A DNA stretch of 64,000 nucleotides from positions 192,001 through 256,000 of the forward strand of contig CAWDVR010000004.1 in assembly GCA_963805975.1 (NCBI GenBank), written 5' to 3'. Numbering within the stretch: position 1 is the stretch's first letter; each line of letters opens with the position of its first letter. Source of the stretch: an uncultured Acidobacteriota bacterium. Lineage in GTDB: Bacteria > Acidobacteriota > Thermoanaerobaculia > Multivoradales > SZUA-115. The translations under genes and the position numbers were made by a program. Positions 41,487-52,839 of this stretch are shown here, piece after piece. The notes beneath the pieces were generated by a model. The model was not told the origin of the DNA. It worked only from the letters and a program-made list of their open reading frames with translations, and made no database searches.

Positions 41487-42344
41487 TCAGATCGCTTCGA
41501 TCTCGGGTCCCGCCAGGTGCCGCGCTACCAGGCCCTCGAGGATGCGCTCCGGGCTGATCGACCGCATTCGGAGCGACGGCGCCCGGAGCAGCGCATCGGC
41601 CAGCGCCAGCACGCGCCGCCGTTGCGGCGCCGGGATCTTCTCCGCTCGCACCGCGGTGAGGATCGCCGCCGCCGCCGCCGACCACGGCCGGCCGCTGCGC
41701 GGCTCTTCCCAACCGCCAACGCCTTCCTTCAAGGTGTCCGCCGCAGCCAAAAGGTAGACCGCGGCGTTGGATTCGGCGAAGCGACCCAGGCAGTCGGCGA
41801 AGGCACTGGCTGCGTTTTCCACCGCCTGCGGGTCGAGCGCCTCCGTGGGGCCCAAGTAGAGGGACAGCGACCGGCTGCGCAACGTGGCCAGGAGGTCGAG
41901 CCGCGACGGCGCCAGGAGCAGGAAGTGGCGGGGCGCCGTGTCGTGGGGCTCCTCCAGGTTCTTGAGCAGGCTGTTGGCGGCCTCGGCGGTCAGCGTCTCG
42001 GCGTTCCCGACCACGAAGACCTGGCCCCGCGCCTCGAACGGCGACACCTGCGCCGCGCGCAGGAAGCCGCGCGCCGCTTCGACCGAGGTCGAGGTCCGGA
42101 GGTCGCGCAGCAGGACCTGGAAGTCCGGGTGGAAGCGCTCTCCCTCGTCGCTCTCCGGCCACACGATACGCCGGCAATGCCGGCAGCGGCCGCAAGGGCG
42201 CTCCTCCGGATCCGCCTCGCACAGCAGGGTGCGGGCCAGCTCGAGAGCGGTCGCGCGGCGCTCCTCCTCGGTGCCACCGTGGAGGATCACGCCGGGGTAG
42301 AGCTCGCCGCCGCGCGCCAGGCGCAGCGCGCCTTCCCGGTTCAT
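41487..42344 (-). CDS. holB: DNA polymerase III subunit delta'
   Basis: 'PCGRCRHC', 'HPDF', 'AANSLLKNLEEP', 'TLRSR'; follows tmk. Confidence 0.9.
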   Translation of the reverse strand: MNREGALRLARGGELYPGVILHGGTEEERRATALELARTLLCEADPEERPCGRCRHCRRIVWPESDEGERFHPDFQVLLRDLRTSTSVEAARGFLRAAQVSPFEARGQVFVVGNAETLTAEAANSLLKNLEEPHDTAPRHFLLLAPSRLDLLATLRSRSLSLYLGPTEALDPQAVENAASAFADCLGRFAESNAAVYLLAAADTLKEGVGGWEEPRSGRPWSAAAAAILTAVRAEKIPAPQRRRVLALADALLRAPSLRMRSISPERILEGLVARHLAGPEIEAI

Positions 42345-43009
42345 GCTCCGGCTCCTGAAGGAGAGACCAGGAGCGGTTCGAGTGCCTTCCGCACCTGCTC
42401 CTCCGTCGCCTCCTTCTCGCCCCCCGAATCGATCACCCGGAAGCGCTCCGGCTCGGCCGCGGCGAGCGCCAGGAAGCCCTCGCGTACCCGGCGGTAGAAG
42501 GCCAGGTCCTCGGCGTCGAGGCGGTCGACGCTCCCCGCCTGCTGGCGGCGGGGCGAGTGGCCGCGCCGCCTAGCGCTGTCCGCCGGCAGGTCGAAGAGCA
42601 GTGTCAGGTCCGGCCGCCGGCCGCCGGTCGCTTCGCGGTCCACCGCCTCGATCGAGGCGAGCGGCACGCCGCGGCCGTGGCCCTGGTAGGCCACGGTCGA
42701 GTCCGTGAAGCGGTCGCAGAGCACGAGCTTGCCGGCGGCGAGCGCGGGGTCGATCACCTCCACCAGGTGCTGGCGCCGGCTGGCGAAGACCAGCAGCAGC
42801 TCGACAGTGCCGTCCGCGGCGCGGAAGCGGGCATCCAGGAACAGGCGCCGCAGCTCGTCGCCGAGCACCGTACCGCCCGGCTCGTGCGTGGTCACGGCCT
42901 CGAGCCCGGCCTCGGCGAGCCAGCGTGCCGCGCGCTTCAAATGAGTGGATTTGCCGCTGCCATCCAGCCCCTCGAAGGTGATGAAGCGGGGGCGGGCGGC
43001 CTGGCTCAT
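42341..43009 (-). CDS. tmk: Thymidylate kinase
   Basis: 'FITFEGLDGSGKST', 'EPGGT', 'CDRFTDST.AYQG'. Confidence 0.95.
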   Translation of the reverse strand: MSQAARPRFITFEGLDGSGKSTHLKRAARWLAEAGLEAVTTHEPGGTVLGDELRRLFLDARFRAADGTVELLLVFASRRQHLVEVIDPALAAGKLVLCDRFTDSTVAYQGHGRGVPLASIEAVDREATGGRRPDLTLLFDLPADSARRRGHSPRRQQAGSVDRLDAEDLAFYRRVREGFLALAAAEPERFRVIDSGGEKEATEEQVRKALEPLLVSPSGAGA

Positions 43010-43278: not shown

Positions 43279-43491
43279 ATGCGCTACGCCATCGTCATCG
43301 AGAAGGCAGAGGGTAACTACTCGGCCTATGCTCCCGATCTTCCCGGTTGCGTCGCCACGGGCTCGACGATCGCAGAGGTCGAAGCCGAGATGCGGGAAGC
43401 CATCGTGTTTCACGTCGAGGGCCTGCGGGAGGACGGCCTGCCCGTGCCCTCTCCCATGAGCCGTGTCGAGTACGTCGAAGTCGCAGCCTAG
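43279..43491 (+). CDS. hicB: Short HicB antitoxin
   Basis: 'YAIVIEK...YSAY.PDLPGC...G.T..E....REAI..H...L.EDG.P.P'. Confidence 0.95.
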   Translation: MRYAIVIEKAEGNYSAYAPDLPGCVATGSTIAEVEAEMREAIVFHVEGLREDGLPVPSPMSRVEYVEVAA

Positions 43492-43567
43492 GCGTGGAAA
43501 TCAATTCGGACGCCGGTACCGGGTGCTCGGCAGTGCCGCGCCGGTCGAACCATACGAGGATGCCCGT

Positions 43568-44188
43568 ATGAGCAGCCATGAGGTCTCGGACGTCGTGATC
43601 GACCTCTCGCACTACAACGAGGTCACGAGCTTTTCGGAGGCCAAGGCCGGGGGGATCGTCGGCGTCATCCACAAGGCGACCCAGGGCACGAGCGGGGTCG
43701 ATCCCACCTACGCGAGCCGCCGCCCGCAGGCGCTGGCGGCCGGCCTCTGGTGGGGTGCGTACCACTTCGGCACCGGCGACGACGTCGTGGCGCAGGCGCA
43801 GCACTTCCTCTCCACGGTGAACCCCGGCCCGCAGGATCTGCTGGCGCTGGATTTCGAGGGCGATGGCAACGACACGATGACGCTCGAGCAAGCCGAGCAG
43901 TTCGTGAGCGCCGTCTACCAGCAGACGGGCCGCTATCCCGGCCTCTACTCAGGCTCGCTCGCCGGCAACGACCTCGCCAACAACCCCAGCACGGTCCTCG
44001 CTAACTGCTGGTTCTGGCGCGCCGAGTACGGCGTGTCGTCCCCCGTCGTGCCGTCCACTTGGCCCACCTGGACGATGTGGCAGTACACGAGCGGCGGCAC
44101 GGCACCGGGGATCGGCGGGGCCTGCGATCGAGATCAGTTCAACGGCAGCCTCGACGCCCTGGCCCTGCTCTGGGGCACTGCCGGCTGA
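43568..44188 (+). CDS. GH25 muramidase (lysozyme)
   Basis: 'IDLSHYN', 'KATQG', 'GAYHF', 'LDFE', 'WQYT', 'DRD.FNG'. Confidence 0.9.
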   Translation: MSSHEVSDVVIDLSHYNEVTSFSEAKAGGIVGVIHKATQGTSGVDPTYASRRPQALAAGLWWGAYHFGTGDDVVAQAQHFLSTVNPGPQDLLALDFEGDGNDTMTLEQAEQFVSAVYQQTGRYPGLYSGSLAGNDLANNPSTVLANCWFWRAEYGVSSPVVPSTWPTWTMWQYTSGGTAPGIGGACDRDQFNGSLDALALLWGTAG

Positions 44189-44194
44189 CGAGCC

Positions 44195-45760
44195 TTACCG
44201 CAACAGCCGCGGCAGTGCTTCTCGCACTTCCTCCGTCGTCATCCCGAGCTTCCCCGCAGCCGCCACCAGTGCCTCGAGGTCCACCGGGTAGAGGCCGGCG
44301 CGAGCCGGGTCGGCGAGGCCGGCAATGTTGCGCGGCTCGATCGCCTGGCTGATCCAGCGCGAGAAAGCCTCGACGTCCGGCTCAGGTGCCTCGAGCTGGC
44401 GGACGGCCTCCGCGAGCACGCCCGAAACCAGCGCATCGCGGCAGCCGAAGAAGCCTTCCCAGGCCCAGTCCCTGGCCTCGGGCGCGAGGCGGCGGGATGC
44501 CTCGGTGAAGCTCACGAAGGCGAAGTAGAGCATCGCGTACGCCTCGAAGAGCTGGAAGTCCGCCATCGTCCGGTAGGCGCCGGAGACCAGGCGGTCCACA
44601 GCGTCCGCCTCTTCGGCGAGGAGAGCTTCGTAGCGCGCCAGCCCCGCGGCCGAGGGCAGGCCGGACGCGAAGAGGCTTCCCACCCGCTCGATGCCCGCCA
44701 AGCTCCAGGCGATGCCGGTCGAGAACAGCGGGTCGGTGAAGGCGAAGGCGCTGGGCAGCAGCAGCCAGCGCTCGCCGGCAGCCCGCGACAGCCGGTGCTG
44801 GAGGCGGGGCACGGCGCGCACGGGGAAGAGCGGCTCGGAAGGCGCGAACTGGCGGCCGATCGACGGGTAGCGCGCGAGGAGCCGCTCCCAGAGCGCCGCG
44901 GGGTCGGCCAGGCCCTGCTCCAGGAGCTGGCGCGCCTCCGGTTTCCGGCGGTCGAGCATGAAACCGGCGCTCACCACGCCGTGGTCGAAGCCCAGCACGT
45001 ACATCCAACCCAGGTCGAGCAAGTGGTGGAGAGCCGCCTTGTCGTCCGGGTAGGGGCCGGGCGGAAGGGCCACGCCTTCGCGCTCCGCCACGGCGGCGAA
45101 GTCCAAGGCGCCGGAGAAGTGGCTGTAGACCAGACCGGCGTCCACCGTGATGCGCTCTGGTGCCGGTGCGATGGGGAGGGCCCGGGCGAGGAAGCCGCCG
45201 GCGCCCGAGGCGTCGATCACGAAGCCGGCCGCGACCTCGAGCCGCCGGCCCTGCCGCTCACCGCCGAGGCTCACCCCCGTCGCGCCGATCTCCACTCGGT
45301 CGAGCGCCGTCTCGTCGAGGTAGACGGCCCCTGCCTCGACCGCCCGGTCGAGGAGGAAGTGGTCCACGTCGGCGCGCAACCAGTGCGTATCGGAGATGCC
45401 GTCGTGCGGGCTCGCCGCCACCAGCAGACGCTCGTTCGCGGCTTCGTGAAACGAGCGGCCGGGCCGATGCCCGAAGAAGCTGAAGCCACGCTTCAAGCCG
45501 CGGCGCACCTGCGGCAGGCGCTCCATCCAGCGCCCGTAGGCCGAGAGGGCGTGAAGGTCTTCCAGGCCGTAGCGCGCGGCGAGCGCGTCGAGCGCGATGG
45601 CGGCGAGCGGCGTCGAGGACTCGCCGATCGCGAAGCGCGGGTGCCTGCCGCGTTCGAGGAGCGCCACGCGATAGCCCTGCGCGAGCAGCACGCGCGCCGC
45701 GATCGAGCCGGCGAAGCCGGAGCCGACGATCGCCACGTCGCAGGCGAGGCTCTCGCTCAT
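44195..45760 (-). CDS. Flavin-dependent halogenase-like protein (PrnC-type)
   Basis: 'GSGFAG', 'HPRFAIGES', 'LKRGFSF', 'RADVD', 'IDASG', 'FTDPLFSTG'; WxWxIP degenerate as 'WMYVLG'. Confidence 0.8.
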   Translation of the reverse strand: MSESLACDVAIVGSGFAGSIAARVLLAQGYRVALLERGRHPRFAIGESSTPLAAIALDALAARYGLEDLHALSAYGRWMERLPQVRRGLKRGFSFFGHRPGRSFHEAANERLLVAASPHDGISDTHWLRADVDHFLLDRAVEAGAVYLDETALDRVEIGATGVSLGGERQGRRLEVAAGFVIDASGAGGFLARALPIAPAPERITVDAGLVYSHFSGALDFAAVAEREGVALPPGPYPDDKAALHHLLDLGWMYVLGFDHGVVSAGFMLDRRKPEARQLLEQGLADPAALWERLLARYPSIGRQFAPSEPLFPVRAVPRLQHRLSRAAGERWLLLPSAFAFTDPLFSTGIAWSLAGIERVGSLFASGLPSAAGLARYEALLAEEADAVDRLVSGAYRTMADFQLFEAYAMLYFAFVSFTEASRRLAPEARDWAWEGFFGCRDALVSGVLAEAVRQLEAPEPDVEAFSRWISQAIEPRNIAGLADPARAGLYPVDLEALVAAAGKLGMTTEEVREALPRLLR

Positions 45761-46716
45761 GGCCTGGAGCCCCCACCGCAGGCGATGCAGGCCACGCGAG
45801 CCTCTGCCGTGCCCGAGAGGTTGAGGCGCGCGAGCCGTGCCCGGCGCGCGCCGGCGCACTCCGGGCAGCACGCGAAGCGCTCGAGGTCCCAGAGGTCCGC
45901 GCTCACCACGCCACCGTGGAGGGCGAGGCAGGCGTCGAGCGCGTCCTCCAGGTCCGCGAGCGACGGCGGCGTGAAGTGACCCTGGCGCTCCAGCTCTTCC
46001 AGCGCCCCGTTGCCGCCTCGTACGGGGATCAGCGAAACGCTCGCCGCGCCCTGCTCGAAGGCGTGCTCGGCCGAGCGCACGGCCCAGGCCACGGACTCGG
46101 CCGCAGGCACGAAGGGCGTGCCCACGAGCACGAAGGCGCGAAGCCCCAGGCCCGCGTTGCGCAGAAGTGCCGCGGCGCGGTCGAAGTCCTCGATCGTCAT
46201 CGCCTTGCCCAGCTGCGGAAGGGCCTGCGGATGGATCGTTTCGAGCCCGATCGCCACTTCGAGCCGGCCGTCGAGCCGCTCCCCGAAGGCGAGCGCCCGC
46301 CGGCCAACGAGCCGCGCGTGGCTCTCGACGACCGTGCGGAGAAACGGCCGGGCGAGCGCCGCCAGCGCGGCGTCGTCTTCCGGCGGCACGGCCCGCGGCT
46401 CAAAGAAGTTGCTCGCGTTGTAGAGCTTGAGGAGAGTGCCGCCGGGGTCCGGGGCCCCGAGCTCCGCGAGCCCGGCCTCGACCTGGGCCGGCAGGGCGCC
46501 CGCCGGCGTGGGGCCGTCCAGAGTGTGCTGCCAGAGGTCGCAGAACACGCAGGTGAACGGGCACTCGGCGCCCGCCAGGAAGAGCGTCGCGGCGGGCACC
46601 ACACCGTGGTCCGCCGTGCGCTCCTCTTCGAGCAGCGCGCCGAGCGGCCGGAAGGGATCGACGAAAGGCTTCGCCGGGCGCAGGGCGCGGACGTCGGGTT
46701 CGGCCGTCGCCGGCAT
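45757..46716 (-). CDS. Radical SAM enzyme, RaSEA-like
   Basis: 'CPFTCVFC'; 'KLYNASNFFE..AVP', 'VES', 'EVAIGLET', 'G.F.PP'; C-terminal 'CPEC...CIAC'. Confidence 0.8.
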   Translation of the reverse strand: MPATAEPDVRALRPAKPFVDPFRPLGALLEEERTADHGVVPAATLFLAGAECPFTCVFCDLWQHTLDGPTPAGALPAQVEAGLAELGAPDPGGTLLKLYNASNFFEPRAVPPEDDAALAALARPFLRTVVESHARLVGRRALAFGERLDGRLEVAIGLETIHPQALPQLGKAMTIEDFDRAAALLRNAGLGLRAFVLVGTPFVPAAESVAWAVRSAEHAFEQGAASVSLIPVRGGNGALEELERQGHFTPPSLADLEDALDACLALHGGVVSADLWDLERFACCPECAGARRARLARLNLSGTAEARVACIACGGGSRP

Positions 46717-48056
46717 CAGGCGGCCGGGCGGTAGAGATCCAGGAAGTGGCGGCGGTACGCCTCGGCGTCCTGCCCCAGCCGCCCCATGAAGACCGCGCCC
46801 GGCAGCGCGCCGTGCTGGAAGCGCCGCTTGGGGAAGACGGGCATGTCGAGCCCGGTCCAATGCCGGAGACCGCGGCGGACGATCTCGCCCTTCAAGGCGT
46901 AGAGGCGCTCATGGTCTCCTGCCGCCAGCTCGGCGAAGGGGATGGCCTCGGCCACCGCGATCACCGCCGGTCGCGTGTAGGGGGAGAAGCCCAGGAAGCC
47001 GTGGCGGGCGAGCGGCGCCGAGGTGCGCACCGTGCCGCGCGAGAGGCCGCCGCTGTAGGTCAGCGAGTGCTTGATCGCCTCCACCCCCCAGCCCTCCTGG
47101 TAGAGCATGCGGTTGTTCACCACGCTCCGGATGGTCAGCTCCGGGTTCTCCTCGATCGGGTAGTCCTTCAGGTTCTCGTCTCCTCCGTCGCCGTCGGCCA
47201 GGTGGCGCCAGGCCGGGTAGCGGCGCCGGATGCCGCCGAGGAGCGCCAGCGCCACGGCCGCGCACTCGACGTCGAGCGGCTTGTAGTCCTCGATCACCTC
47301 GACCGCCGCCAGCGGGTCGACCTCGCCGGCGCCGGCCTCGATCACCTCGCCCAGCATCTCGAGGTCGAGCCGCGAGAGGAACTCCCGCGCCTGGGCCAGG
47401 TCCTCGCCGCCGCCGTCCACGGCGAGCGTGAAGGCCTTGAGCCGCACCGGGCTCTGCCCCAGGTCGAGGAGGGTGCGATAGACGGCGAGGAGCACGGCAC
47501 CGCTGTCGATGCCGCCCGAGAACAGCACGCCGATCGGCTCCTCGGGGCCCACGGCCGAGAGCCAGGCGCGGGTCTCTTCGAGGAGCGCCCCCACGTAGCG
47601 GCGCCCGATCTCGTCGAGGTCCGGCGCCAGCACTCCGCGCGGCGGGTCGAAGAAGCGGCGGTAGGTGGGGTTGGGGTCCGGGCAGCCCACCAGGCGCAGG
47701 TTCGTCACGTGGTGGGCCGGCGCCATGCGCGTGTAGCTGGGGTGGAACTGGCCGCCGTGCCCCTCGGCCTCGAGGCAGCGGCGGATCTCGTCGATGCGCT
47801 CGGCCACCACCAGCATGGGCCCCGCGGCTTCCTTGGCCAGGAAGTAGCGCAGCGGCCGGTCCAGGCTCCGCGCCAGGGCCACGCGCTCGCCGTCGCGGGC
47901 CATCAGGGCGAACGACCCCTGGATGCCGAGCACCGCGGCCGGGTCGTCGTCCAGCAGGCGCCGGCGCGCTTCGTCCACGGAGAGGTTGAGGATCTGCTGG
48001 CGGCCGGGGTCGACGAGGTCGATGACGCGGGCGATGGGGCGGTGTGGAGTCAGCAT
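46716..48056 (-). CDS. Asparagine-synthetase-like ATP-dependent amide ligase (no N-terminal Cys)
   Basis: PP-loop 'FSGGIDS', 'DGDGGDE', 'PY', 'K..I.R', 'PKRRFQ.G'; degenerate Ntn N-domain. Confidence 0.85.
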   Translation of the reverse strand: MLTPHRPIARVIDLVDPGRQQILNLSVDEARRRLLDDDPAAVLGIQGSFALMARDGERVALARSLDRPLRYFLAKEAAGPMLVVAERIDEIRRCLEAEGHGGQFHPSYTRMAPAHHVTNLRLVGCPDPNPTYRRFFDPPRGVLAPDLDEIGRRYVGALLEETRAWLSAVGPEEPIGVLFSGGIDSGAVLLAVYRTLLDLGQSPVRLKAFTLAVDGGGEDLAQAREFLSRLDLEMLGEVIEAGAGEVDPLAAVEVIEDYKPLDVECAAVALALLGGIRRRYPAWRHLADGDGGDENLKDYPIEENPELTIRSVVNNRMLYQEGWGVEAIKHSLTYSGGLSRGTVRTSAPLARHGFLGFSPYTRPAVIAVAEAIPFAELAAGDHERLYALKGEIVRRGLRHWTGLDMPVFPKRRFQHGALPGAVFMGRLGQDAEAYRRHFLDLYRPAA

Positions 48057-48091
48057 GGTGGAATTCTAGCCTCAGAGAGGACGCACTCCGG

Positions 48092-48129
48092 CCCCCTCTC
48101 CCACTTGCGGGAGAGGGCTGGGGTGAGGG
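48092..48129. repeat. CCCTCTCCC-N-GGGAGAGGG palindromic REP-like element
   Basis: CCCCCTCTCCCACTTGCGGGAGAGGGCTGGGGTGAGGG in the divergent intergenic region. Confidence 0.7.
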
Positions 48130-51497: not shown

Positions 51498-52742
51498 CTA
51501 CCGCGCGGTGATCGTTTCGGCAGACTCGAAGCCCACCGTCCGCCAATCCCCCAAGGGCAGCACCTCGCAGCTCTCCCCTGTTCCTCGCGCCGCCTCTCCG
51601 GCGCGCACGCGCACCAGGCCCGAGCCGCGGCCGTAGGCGCCGAGGTCGTGGGAGCCCACGGGGGGGCAGGGGAGGGCGAGGACGCGGCCCTCTTCGAAGG
51701 CGATCTCGGCGGGGAGGAAGCGGTCGCGAGCCGTGGCCGCGGGTAAGGGGCCGGCGAGCTCGGCGGCGACCGCGCCCTGCCAGAGGCCGTCGGCCAGGCC
51801 CAGGAGGCGCCGCAGGGCCGGGCGGACGAAGAGCCAGAAGCCGACCATGGCGCCGGCCGGGTTGCCGGGCAGGCCGAAGACCAGGCCGCGGGCGTGGCGG
51901 GCAGCGACCAGGGGCTTGCCCGGCTGGACGGCCACGGCGTCGAAGATCGTCTCGCAGCCGAAGCCGGCGAGAACGCCCTCCACCAGGTCCAGCTCGCCGG
52001 CCGAAACGCCGCCGGTGGTGAGCAGCACGTCGTAGCCGAGCCCCTTCTCGATCGCGCCTGCCAGCGACTCGATCTCATCGCGCGCGATGCCGAGCGGCTC
52101 GAAGGCCAGGCCCAGGGCGGCGCCGGCCGCGAGCAGGAAGTCCGTATGCGAGTCACGGAGCTGGCCGGGGCGGGGCTCGGCATCGGGCGCCACCACCTCG
52201 TCGCCGGTGACGAGGATCGCCACCCGCGGCGCGCGGTGCACCTCCACCTCGGGCGTGCCGTGAGTGGCGAGAAGCGCCAGGGCCCCCGGGGTGAGCAACG
52301 CGCCCGCGGCCAGCAGGGGGCCGCCGGCACGCTGCACCTCGCCGCGCCGCCGGATGTGCGCGCCGGCCTCGAAGGCGCGCGCGAAAACCACGACCCGGGC
52401 TCCGCGGTCCGACGCCTCGACCGGGATCACCCGATCCGCGCCGCGCGGCACCGGGGCGCCGGTCATGATGCGGGCAGCGCTGCCGGGGGGGAGCTCGAAG
52501 CCGGGAGGGTCACCCGCGACCACCGTGCCGGCCACCGGCAGCACGGCACCGGCGGCGAGATCCCCGCAGACGGCGTAGCCGTCCATGGCCGAGACGTCTG
52601 CGGCCGGCACGTCGACCGTCGCTGCCACGGAGCGCGCCAGCACGCGCCCGGCGCTCGCGCGCCGCGGCAGGCGCTCGGCCGGCAAGGGAGCCAGATGCGG
52701 CAGCAAACGCTGCCAGGCGGCTTCGGGTGGGATCACTGGCAT
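51498..52742 (-). CDS. moeA: Molybdopterin molybdotransferase
   Basis: 'SAMDGYA', 'IMTGAPVP.GAD', 'TGDE', 'TGGVSAG', 'PGKP', 'GLPGNP'. Confidence 0.95.
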   Translation of the reverse strand: MPVIPPEAAWQRLLPHLAPLPAERLPRRASAGRVLARSVAATVDVPAADVSAMDGYAVCGDLAAGAVLPVAGTVVAGDPPGFELPPGSAARIMTGAPVPRGADRVIPVEASDRGARVVVFARAFEAGAHIRRRGEVQRAGGPLLAAGALLTPGALALLATHGTPEVEVHRAPRVAILVTGDEVVAPDAEPRPGQLRDSHTDFLLAAGAALGLAFEPLGIARDEIESLAGAIEKGLGYDVLLTTGGVSAGELDLVEGVLAGFGCETIFDAVAVQPGKPLVAARHARGLVFGLPGNPAGAMVGFWLFVRPALRRLLGLADGLWQGAVAAELAGPLPAATARDRFLPAEIAFEEGRVLALPCPPVGSHDLGAYGRGSGLVRVRAGEAARGTGESCEVLPLGDWRTVGFESAETITAR

Positions 52743-52839
52743 CCGGAAGCGGATGCTATACTCACGCGTCTCCACCGCCGTCCGGCACGACGCTCCATTT
52801 CGCCATGCTTTCGTTGTCTTTTCTCATCTCTTCGCCGTC

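Follow-up and report, generated by a model that had tools for sequence, protein, structure and literature searches.

Gene organization and predicted enzymes

The window analysed here is a 64,000-nucleotide stretch of DNA from an uncultured Acidobacteriota bacterium whose nearest named relatives are Thermoanaerobaculia, and its subject is a group of three minus-strand open reading frames (ORFs) with overlapping stop and start codons, referred to below as the trio. Gene 1 (46716..48056, 446 aa) encodes a predicted ATP-dependent ligase of the AsnB/beta-lactam-synthetase fold without the Ntn Cys1, as judged from PF00733, a structure model, Foldseek, and VIA. Gene 2 (45757..46716, 319 aa) encodes a radical S-adenosylmethionine (SAM) enzyme related to RaSEA, QueL, and Elp3 according to TIGR01210, a profile match to the PDB, and its model, and gene 3 (44195..45760, 521 aa) encodes a flavin-dependent halogenase-like enzyme of the PltM/CtcP clade according to profile matches. 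The first-pass annotation, which was made from the sequence alone, had proposed an undescribed pathway, and a description of this combination was indeed not found in the papers searched, with subscription papers mostly outside the search. The gene overlaps it listed, TGATG at 46718-46714 and ATGA at 45760-45757, are both present.

A TAGAAT sequence resembling a -10 box lies at 48063..48068 on the minus strand, six bases 5′ of the gene 1 ATG, and this earlier observation was backed by the homologous upstream regions. Among 93 distinct regions, TANNNT occurred 4-8 nt ahead of the gene 1 ATG in 19, compared with a mean of 3.1 and a maximum of 10 in shuffles. Since this spacing was enriched, gene 1 appears to head its own transcription unit, and the sequence suggests that its transcript is leaderless in the window genome. 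A Shine-Dalgarno-like word was present in 60 of the 93 regions, and a sigma-70 scan found no full promoter. The base composition of the trio was like that of the remainder of the window. Each gene was single-copy in the source genome, which additionally carried two distant paralogues of gene 3 (26% identity), and none of the three proteins had a hydrophobic signal or membrane segment.

Gene 1 matched only Asn_synthase (PF00733) in Pfam, with an E of 1.2e-7 and 32 bits versus 21, and scored 23 bits against a cut-off of 267 with TIGR01536, the profile of the glutamine-hydrolysing asparagine synthetases. Its predicted structure (pLDDT 83.8) contained two domains that matched beta-lactam synthetase (BLS), asparagine synthetases, and CarA, placing a PP-loop synthetase domain on an Ntn-type N-domain as in the AsnB/BLS superfamily. 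The VIA Z value was 23.3 to AsnB and ranged from 19 to 24 across ASNS, AsnB, BLS, and CarA. The model aligned from AsnB residue 40 onward, so that the Cys1-bearing AsnB strand had no counterpart, and only 7 of 127 homologues had a Cys among the 16 residues that open their matched part, in line with the lack of an N-terminal Cys reported earlier. The motifs SGG.DS, [DE]G[DE]GGDE, K.RFQ, and GCPDP were each present in 127/127 near-full-length homologues; the first is the previously noted PP-loop SGGIDS at 47502..47519 (minus strand). The missing Cys1 strand together with the retained synthetase motifs bore out the glutaminase-less AsnB-fold ligase of the first-pass annotation. Since these motifs were kept and the glutaminase nucleophile was absent, gene 1 would require another nitrogen source. 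A plain glutamine-dependent asparagine synthetase was ruled out by the TIGR01536 score and the structural alignment.

The likeness of gene 1 to BLS, CarA, and AsnB is thus one of two-domain fold and PP-loop, whereas its identity to them is 11-19%, it is about 40 N-terminal residues shorter than AsnB, and it carries the invariant GCPDP insertion (47673..47687, minus strand), which contains Cys125. The top Foldseek match of the model was BLS (E 7e-13), an enzyme that has no glutaminase activity and forms a lactam; CarA likewise has no glutaminase activity. Gene 1 could accordingly be read as a BLS-like intramolecular cyclase, or as an ammonia-dependent amidating enzyme, with gene 2 tailoring uncoupled from nitrogen donation. 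We consider this quite improbable given the low identity to BLS and CarA, the equal or better VIA values of human ASNS and AsnB, and the fact that genes 1 and 2 were almost never found apart. The gene 1 family is large: every one of the 8000 candidates that were scored passed, with an identity of at least 71% for the top 120. Searching gene 1 against the PDB with phmmer gave no match. All clusters obtained from the ESM Atlas had either no name or a generic one.

The only NCBIfam match of gene 2 was TIGR01210 (RaSEA; E 3.5e-15, 56 bits). When the gene 2 profile was compared with PDB sequences, the queuine lyase QueL came first (6P78; E 2e-4), with an E of 1.5 for Elp3, and phmmer of gene 2 against the PDB gave no match. 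The CxxxCxxC cluster motif (46540..46563, minus strand) was found as CxxxCxxCD[LY]W in 107/107 homologues, and the protein combines the motif with the fold of radical SAM enzymes; at E<=1e-30 its profile collected 553 representatives. Both CxxxCxxC and EVAIGLET are present as first described, and the RaSEA-like radical SAM assignment stood, although the C-terminal Cys cluster cited with them is not universal, occurring in 81/107 homologues. QueL has the CxxxCxxCD, N.gsFF, E.H, and G.ET motifs in common with gene 2, and it likewise fits the proposed chemistry in that it removes an N-substituent from a deazaguanine. It differs as a salvage enzyme of 251 aa without a ligase partner.

According to PMC11298593, ArcS transfers lysine to preQ0, with no ammonia or glutamine use in three species, and is active only when complexed with RaSEA, which turns the preQ0-Lys adduct into archaeosine. 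PMC11130926 and PMC7694415 describe the regeneration of preQ1 from queuine by QueL. Because of the substrates and products given in these three sources, both reactions can be said to break a C-N bond, and by sequence the two nearest characterised relatives of gene 2 thus appear to be enzymes that remove a substituent from nitrogen.

The structure model of gene 2 (pLDDT 94.6) gave a different order, with Elp3 structures as the top Foldseek matches and QueL at rank 46. Elp3 enzymes form a C-C bond, and their chemistry is the addition of an acetyl radical to uridine. By analogy, gene 1 could adenylate an acid and keep it as a thioester on Cys125, gene 2 could take a hydrogen from the acyl group and add the resulting radical to an aromatic ring, and gene 3 could decorate that ring as well, for which the invariance of GCPDP also speaks. 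However, the sequence profiles prefer RaSEA and QueL over Elp3, and Cys125 sits in a hairpin of the gene 1 N-terminal domain in the predicted structure, and we regard such a coupling as unlikely. In another genome (G010, L164:7378-9928), a gene for an ATP-grasp protein came after a RaSEA-like gene (107 bits) that belongs to a different subfamily. This single case, in a genome where gene 1 was not found, is possibly a second ligase-plus-lyase pairing.

The gene 3 profile matched PltM (E 3e-75) and the tetracycline 7-halogenase CtcP (E 2e-72) over the full length and far above other halogenases, which upheld the PrnC-type likeness noted earlier and placed the protein among the PltM/CtcP/PrnC-clade flavoenzymes. 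Lys90 (45491..45493, minus strand) was invariant in an alignment of the family. It lines up with the Lys that PltM and CtcP conserve, which we take to be the catalytic Lys, and G[LVP]KRGF was found in 71/75 homologues. The GxGxxG motif was present in 74/75 homologues, and the tunnel motif Fx.Px.Sx.G reads FTDPLFSTG in the window, with PxxSTG in 71/75. In contrast to PltM, CtcP, and PrnC, WxWxIP was found in 0/75 homologues and was replaced in 75/75 by GW.[WY].L.F (W-x-[WY]-x-L-x-F), and there was no polyketide synthase (PKS) or nonribosomal peptide synthetase context and no conserved flavin reductase nearby. PMC8407142 names GxGxxG, Fx.Px.Sx.G, and WxWxIP as motifs of flavin-dependent halogenases, states that WxWxIP is missing from some true halogenases, and gives free phenols or pyrroles as the substrates of PltM and PrnC. 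Judged by its sequence, gene 3 is likely to halogenate; since WxWxIP is absent from all 75 homologues, hydroxylation was kept as an alternative, and the enzyme may hydroxylate instead. By these comparisons, each enzyme of the trio belongs to a known superfamily, yet scores below the cut-off of the named family closest to it or lacks one of the features that define that family, with gene 3 showing most of the features of a halogenase.

Co-inheritance of the three genes

Of 251 genomes of the phylum (a set that includes the unpublished G023), 22 carried gene 1. Gene 2 was present in exactly these 22, apart from a single weak match that belongs to another subfamily. A gene 3 orthologue (E<=1e-164) was present in 19 of these 22 and in 0 of the 229 others, three other genomes having paralogue-level matches only. 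It was not found in 3 of the 22 or in G255-G258, all of which are draft assemblies; gene 3 is optional in some lineages. Among 43 genome loci listed with gene 2, which their record titles place in Acidobacteriota, Gemmatimonadota, Planctomycetota, Deltaproteobacteria, Chthonomonadales, and Verrucomicrobiota, gene 1 was present in 39 and gene 3 in 28 (in one case 5.6 kb away). For the metagenomes, the best 80 of 590 loci retrieved with gene 1 were used. Where the contig left room, gene 2 followed gene 1 in 72/73 loci and gene 3 came next in 47/49, and gene 1 stood without an adjoining gene 2 in one metagenome locus (L144). The trio is carried by several groups of soil and sediment bacteria. Since the genomes and loci are related and partly redundant, Fisher values for such co-occurrence counts are inflated.

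The trio was also kept together where its genes are scattered, as in Planctomycetota and Verrucomicrobiota. A strong gene 2 was found in 6 of 121 Planctomycetota genomes, and each of the six had the whole trio, with the genes side by side in two and dispersed, in part or completely, in four; G253 carries them on three separate contigs. Where gene 2 had no neighbouring gene 1, gene 1 was located elsewhere in 4/4 genomes and in G347. Likewise, a non-adjacent gene 3 was found in G253 and in 5/5 further genomes, one of these being a fragment at a contig end. Because the genes were retained after scattering, the trio is best regarded as a functional pathway and not as a passenger block. The pairwise identities of the three proteins correlated at 0.81-0.84 over 63 loci, and the gene trees had 14/25 to 23/31 of their well-supported splits in common. 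A share of about one half to three quarters fits joint inheritance but falls short of full congruence. The conservation across phyla on which the first-pass annotation depended was thus seen in genomes, metagenomes, and scattered loci alike, and the three genes almost certainly constitute one pathway.

Single-copy genes that persist when scattered resemble housekeeping genes, and RaSEA and QueL act on 7-deazaguanine compounds, as Elp3 does on tRNA. A 7-deazapurine, or some other tRNA nucleoside, could therefore be the substrate; 7-carboxy-7-deazaguanine, for example, might be amidated via a lysine adduct and then halogenated or hydroxylated. At one metagenome locus, QueF (L113:1334-1762) lies directly upstream of gene 1 on the same strand, which would fit. 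However, QueF was recognised at only 1 of 142 loci (with part of the neighbours Pfam-scanned), a Pfam scan detected no RNA-binding domain in any trio protein, the distribution is patchy (22/251), and the link with propeller proteins described below would be left unexplained. We therefore assign a low probability to a nucleoside substrate.

Genomic surroundings and exported propeller proteins

The first-pass annotation had described the trio as flanked by unrelated genes. This holds for the window but not for the family, in which FG-GAP/ASPIC-UnbV genes are the commonest neighbours, a link the annotation did not contain. Clustering of the neighbours produced one dominant group, found at 56 loci and consisting of exported FG-GAP/ASPIC-UnbV propellers, many with lipoprotein-like N-termini. 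FG-GAP/ASPIC genes lay within 1 kb of the trio at 47/142 loci and within 8 kb at 57/142, compared with 2.0% and 4.6% of positions in the source genome background, where the profile was built from trio loci, the background score was stricter (150 vs 60), and the loci are related, with at least one duplicated. When only loci with long flanks were counted, the values were 18/69 (1 kb) and 7/19 (8 kb). In one recurring module, a giant TPR-FG-GAP-ASPIC protein whose C-terminal domain spans 430 residues was accompanied by one or two propellers of 600 residues and by a membrane protein resembling NqrB/RnfD; other trio-linked neighbourhoods contained TPR-cytochrome c554, SusC/D, or GH97 genes.

At the level of whole genomes, PF07593 was present in 22/22 trio genomes of the phylum versus 112/229 others. 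The C-terminal domain of the giant protein starts with a conserved Ser-Cys and was found in 100/251 and 43/121 genomes of the two phyla; it had no Pfam match and no significant PDB sequence match, which is not proof of a new fold. This domain was detected in 22/22 trio genomes versus 78/229 others in the phylum and in 6/6 versus 37/115 in Planctomycetota, so that the giant protein was present in 28/28 trio genomes across two phyla. In Planctomycetota, the trio genomes held six of the top seven giant-domain scores among the 43 positives, a ranking that kinship may explain and in which one of these genomes was part of the profile. An UnbU-like membrane subfamily was found in 9/22 trio genomes versus 5/229 others (6 with one weak match), its profile having included 5 of the 9 positive trio genomes. 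The trio is thus nested within the giant-protein genomes, and no one propeller subtype was singled out.

Since trio genomes carry 4-20 ASPIC copies each and related genomes inflate the counts, the pathway could be real and its proximity to FG-GAP/ASPIC-UnbV genes a mere hitchhiking of multi-copy genes in the same lineages; the neighbours also belong to several propeller subtypes and are often on the opposite strand. Against this, the local enrichment was roughly tenfold or more over the background of the genome itself, independent arrangements occurred in four phyla, and the giant protein accompanied the trio without exception. Hitchhiking is therefore improbable, and the trio is probably linked to the surface propeller system. 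The papers searched, again with subscription papers mostly outside the search, contained no description of this propeller link or of a function of UnbV, UnbU, or E4.

A closer relation would be that the trio modifies the propeller proteins before export, producing a protein-derived cofactor or modified residue as the QhpD/QhpG or LodB maturases do. The genomic nesting and adjacency would suit such a role, as would the weak matches of the QhpG, GoxB, and LodB profiles to gene 3, the scattered genes 1 and 3 of G251, each with a propeller gene within about 8 kb, and the record P0258, in which gene 2 is joined to a propeller protein. However, P0258 is a single record with an internal signal-like segment and probably represents two genes; it was rejected as a true fusion and read as adjacency. 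Scattered trio genes in G330 and G347 had no propeller neighbour, most giant-protein genomes lack the trio, and gene 3 is much nearer to the halogenases of free substrates. Modification of the propellers consequently seems to us a doubtful explanation.

In the source genome, an UnbU/UnbV module is located on contig C1 at ~687-696 kb (L166:7069-16304). Its accessory genes encode two membrane proteins, one of 233 aa without annotation and one resembling NapH/MauN, and a YtkA-like protein, with a di-haem peroxidase nearby, and these accessory genes also come after the trio in G027 (L157). The same genome carries an enediyne-type cassette on contig C3 at ~326-336 kb (L167:4311-13978), with DUF1702, an ASPIC-UnbV gene, an NqrB/RnfD-like gene, and an iterative PKS of 1980 aa, and the membrane protein of the module was homologous to that of the cassette (probability 99.5, 34% identity). 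The enediyne proteins E4 and E5, which we take to be UnbV and UnbU, take part in iodination. PMC10760148 describes formation of the enediyne core by E3, E4, and E5 with a PKS and a thioesterase. The trio neighbourhoods resemble the enediyne cassette in their ASPIC-UnbV propellers and NqrB/RnfD-like membrane protein. They differ in that the trio-linked modules showed neither a PKS nor a DUF1702 gene and add the giant TPR-propeller protein; PKSE, thioesterase, E3, E4, and E5 did not occur together at trio loci, and the cassette of the source genome is on another contig. In L169, L171, L175, and L177, the UnbU/UnbV module adjoins an ABC transporter whose binding protein is NMT1/THI5-like (as annotated in L169). 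These loci come from trio genomes as well as from genomes in which no trio was found, a placement that would fit the salvage of a small product.

Around the trio itself, genes reading as tmk, holB, and moeA (window 41487-43009 and 51498-52775) flank it both here and in L013, L123, L149, and L150, and the trio therefore appears to be a long-term resident of this site in part of the order. Other genes near it seem to have joined later, namely GH25 (43463-44188), a small pair of HicAB type, and those for the transhydrogenase. The stretch that separates the trio from pntA holds a short perfect inverted repeat with 9-bp arms (48094-48117). It lies upstream of the -10-like box and has the look of a dispersed palindromic element or of the border of the divergent unit. 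No conserved co-directional fourth gene was found at trio loci. As first stated, no conserved precursor ORF lies near the trio: 771 small ORFs within 2.5 kb formed no widely shared cluster, so that the conserved precursor peptide of a lasso peptide or other ribosomally made and post-translationally modified peptide (RiPP) system was not seen within that distance. A small protein of repeated seven-residue NQ units was encoded 3′ of gene 3 in two loci only (L073:6919-7143 and L153:7402-7740), and in one genome (G166, L147:4497-7715) the region immediately upstream of the trio holds an MbnB/TglH-family gene and an ORF of 76 aa whose sequence is leader-like. Apparent fusions of gene 1 with gene 2 and of gene 2 with gene 3 (P0274, P0275, P0276, P0277, P0279, and also P0280) contained out-of-frame stretches and were rejected as frameshift artefacts.

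A candidate ligation, cleavage, and halogenation pathway

The reading we put forward tentatively, and by analogy, is that the trio carries out lysine ligation, radical C-N cleavage to a carboxamide, and halogenation. Gene 1 would adenylate a carboxylic acid with ATP and join it to an organic amine, for which the epsilon-amine of lysine is the likeliest candidate. Gene 2 would cut the C-N bond of the product radically to leave a primary carboxamide, and gene 3 would halogenate this small molecule on an electron-rich ring. The molecule would probably then be used or bound by the giant exported TPR/beta-propeller protein system. Genes 1 and 2 would form the core and gene 3 a dispensable tailoring step. 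The order of ligation, cleavage, and halogenation was proposed because the glutaminase is lost, the ligase is tightly coupled to a radical enzyme whose closest characterised relatives by sequence take substituents off nitrogen, and the halogenase is of the free-substrate type. The analysis shows the gene structure, the folds and motifs, the co-inheritance, and the nesting within the propeller system; we infer every chemical step, the identity of the amine, the small-molecule nature of the substrate, and the direction of the surface link.

The trio resembles the ArcS-RaSEA archaeosine synthase of Euryarchaeota (TIGR01210; PMC11298593) in that a partner which ligates an amine is paired with a small radical SAM enzyme, and the radical enzymes of both belong to one wider family. 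It differs in that the partner is ATP-dependent and AsnB-fold instead of TGT-like as ArcS is, that gene 2 scores far below the family cut-off, and that the system is bacterial with an added flavoenzyme. Lysine and a radical lyase would stand in for the lost glutaminase as they do in ArcS-RaSEA, with an AsnB scaffold, and what would be new here is this logic on a different ligase.

Several observations weigh against this pathway or its surface role. Compared with the RaSEA cut-off of 212 bits, gene 2 reached 56 bits and four relatives 68-105 bits, the match to QueL was weak, and the structural matches favoured Elp3. The proposal of the first-pass annotation that an amine is ligated and then cleaved radically has thus gained a second analogue in queuine lyase, and these scores and structures keep it conditional. 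The invariance of Cys125 has no explanation in a lysine-ligation mechanism, WxWxIP is replaced throughout the gene 3 family, and gene 3 was not found in some of the draft genomes. No conserved substrate-supplying gene was found next to the trio. On the side of the surface system, no ASPIC gene was found on the contig of the window in the source genome, 78 of the 100 giant-protein genomes, including members of the same families, were without the trio, so that the link is one-way, and most of the loci behind the profiles for the propellers, UnbU, and the giant domain were trio-linked, a bias on top of the relatedness of the genomes. A more specific proposal, which we hold to be rather unlikely, is that the trio makes a halogenated cofactor or ligand for an extracytoplasmic enzyme system of E4/E5 homologues and the giant TPR-propeller lipoprotein; surface-system genomes without the trio would then import the compound or use an untailored form.

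If the ligation and cleavage pathway is true, it would represent a route to carboxamides in which an amino acid and a radical lyase replace glutamine or ammonia, and the ArcS-RaSEA logic would be extended from archaeal tRNA to bacterial small molecules. Since the trio consists of three soluble enzymes without membrane segments, the question is directly testable. The trio is also a possible source of organohalogens in soil. It offers a first handle on the abundant and unexplained ASPIC/UnbV propellers of Acidobacteriota, Gemmatimonadota, and Planctomycetota, relatives of which are needed for enediyne core formation.

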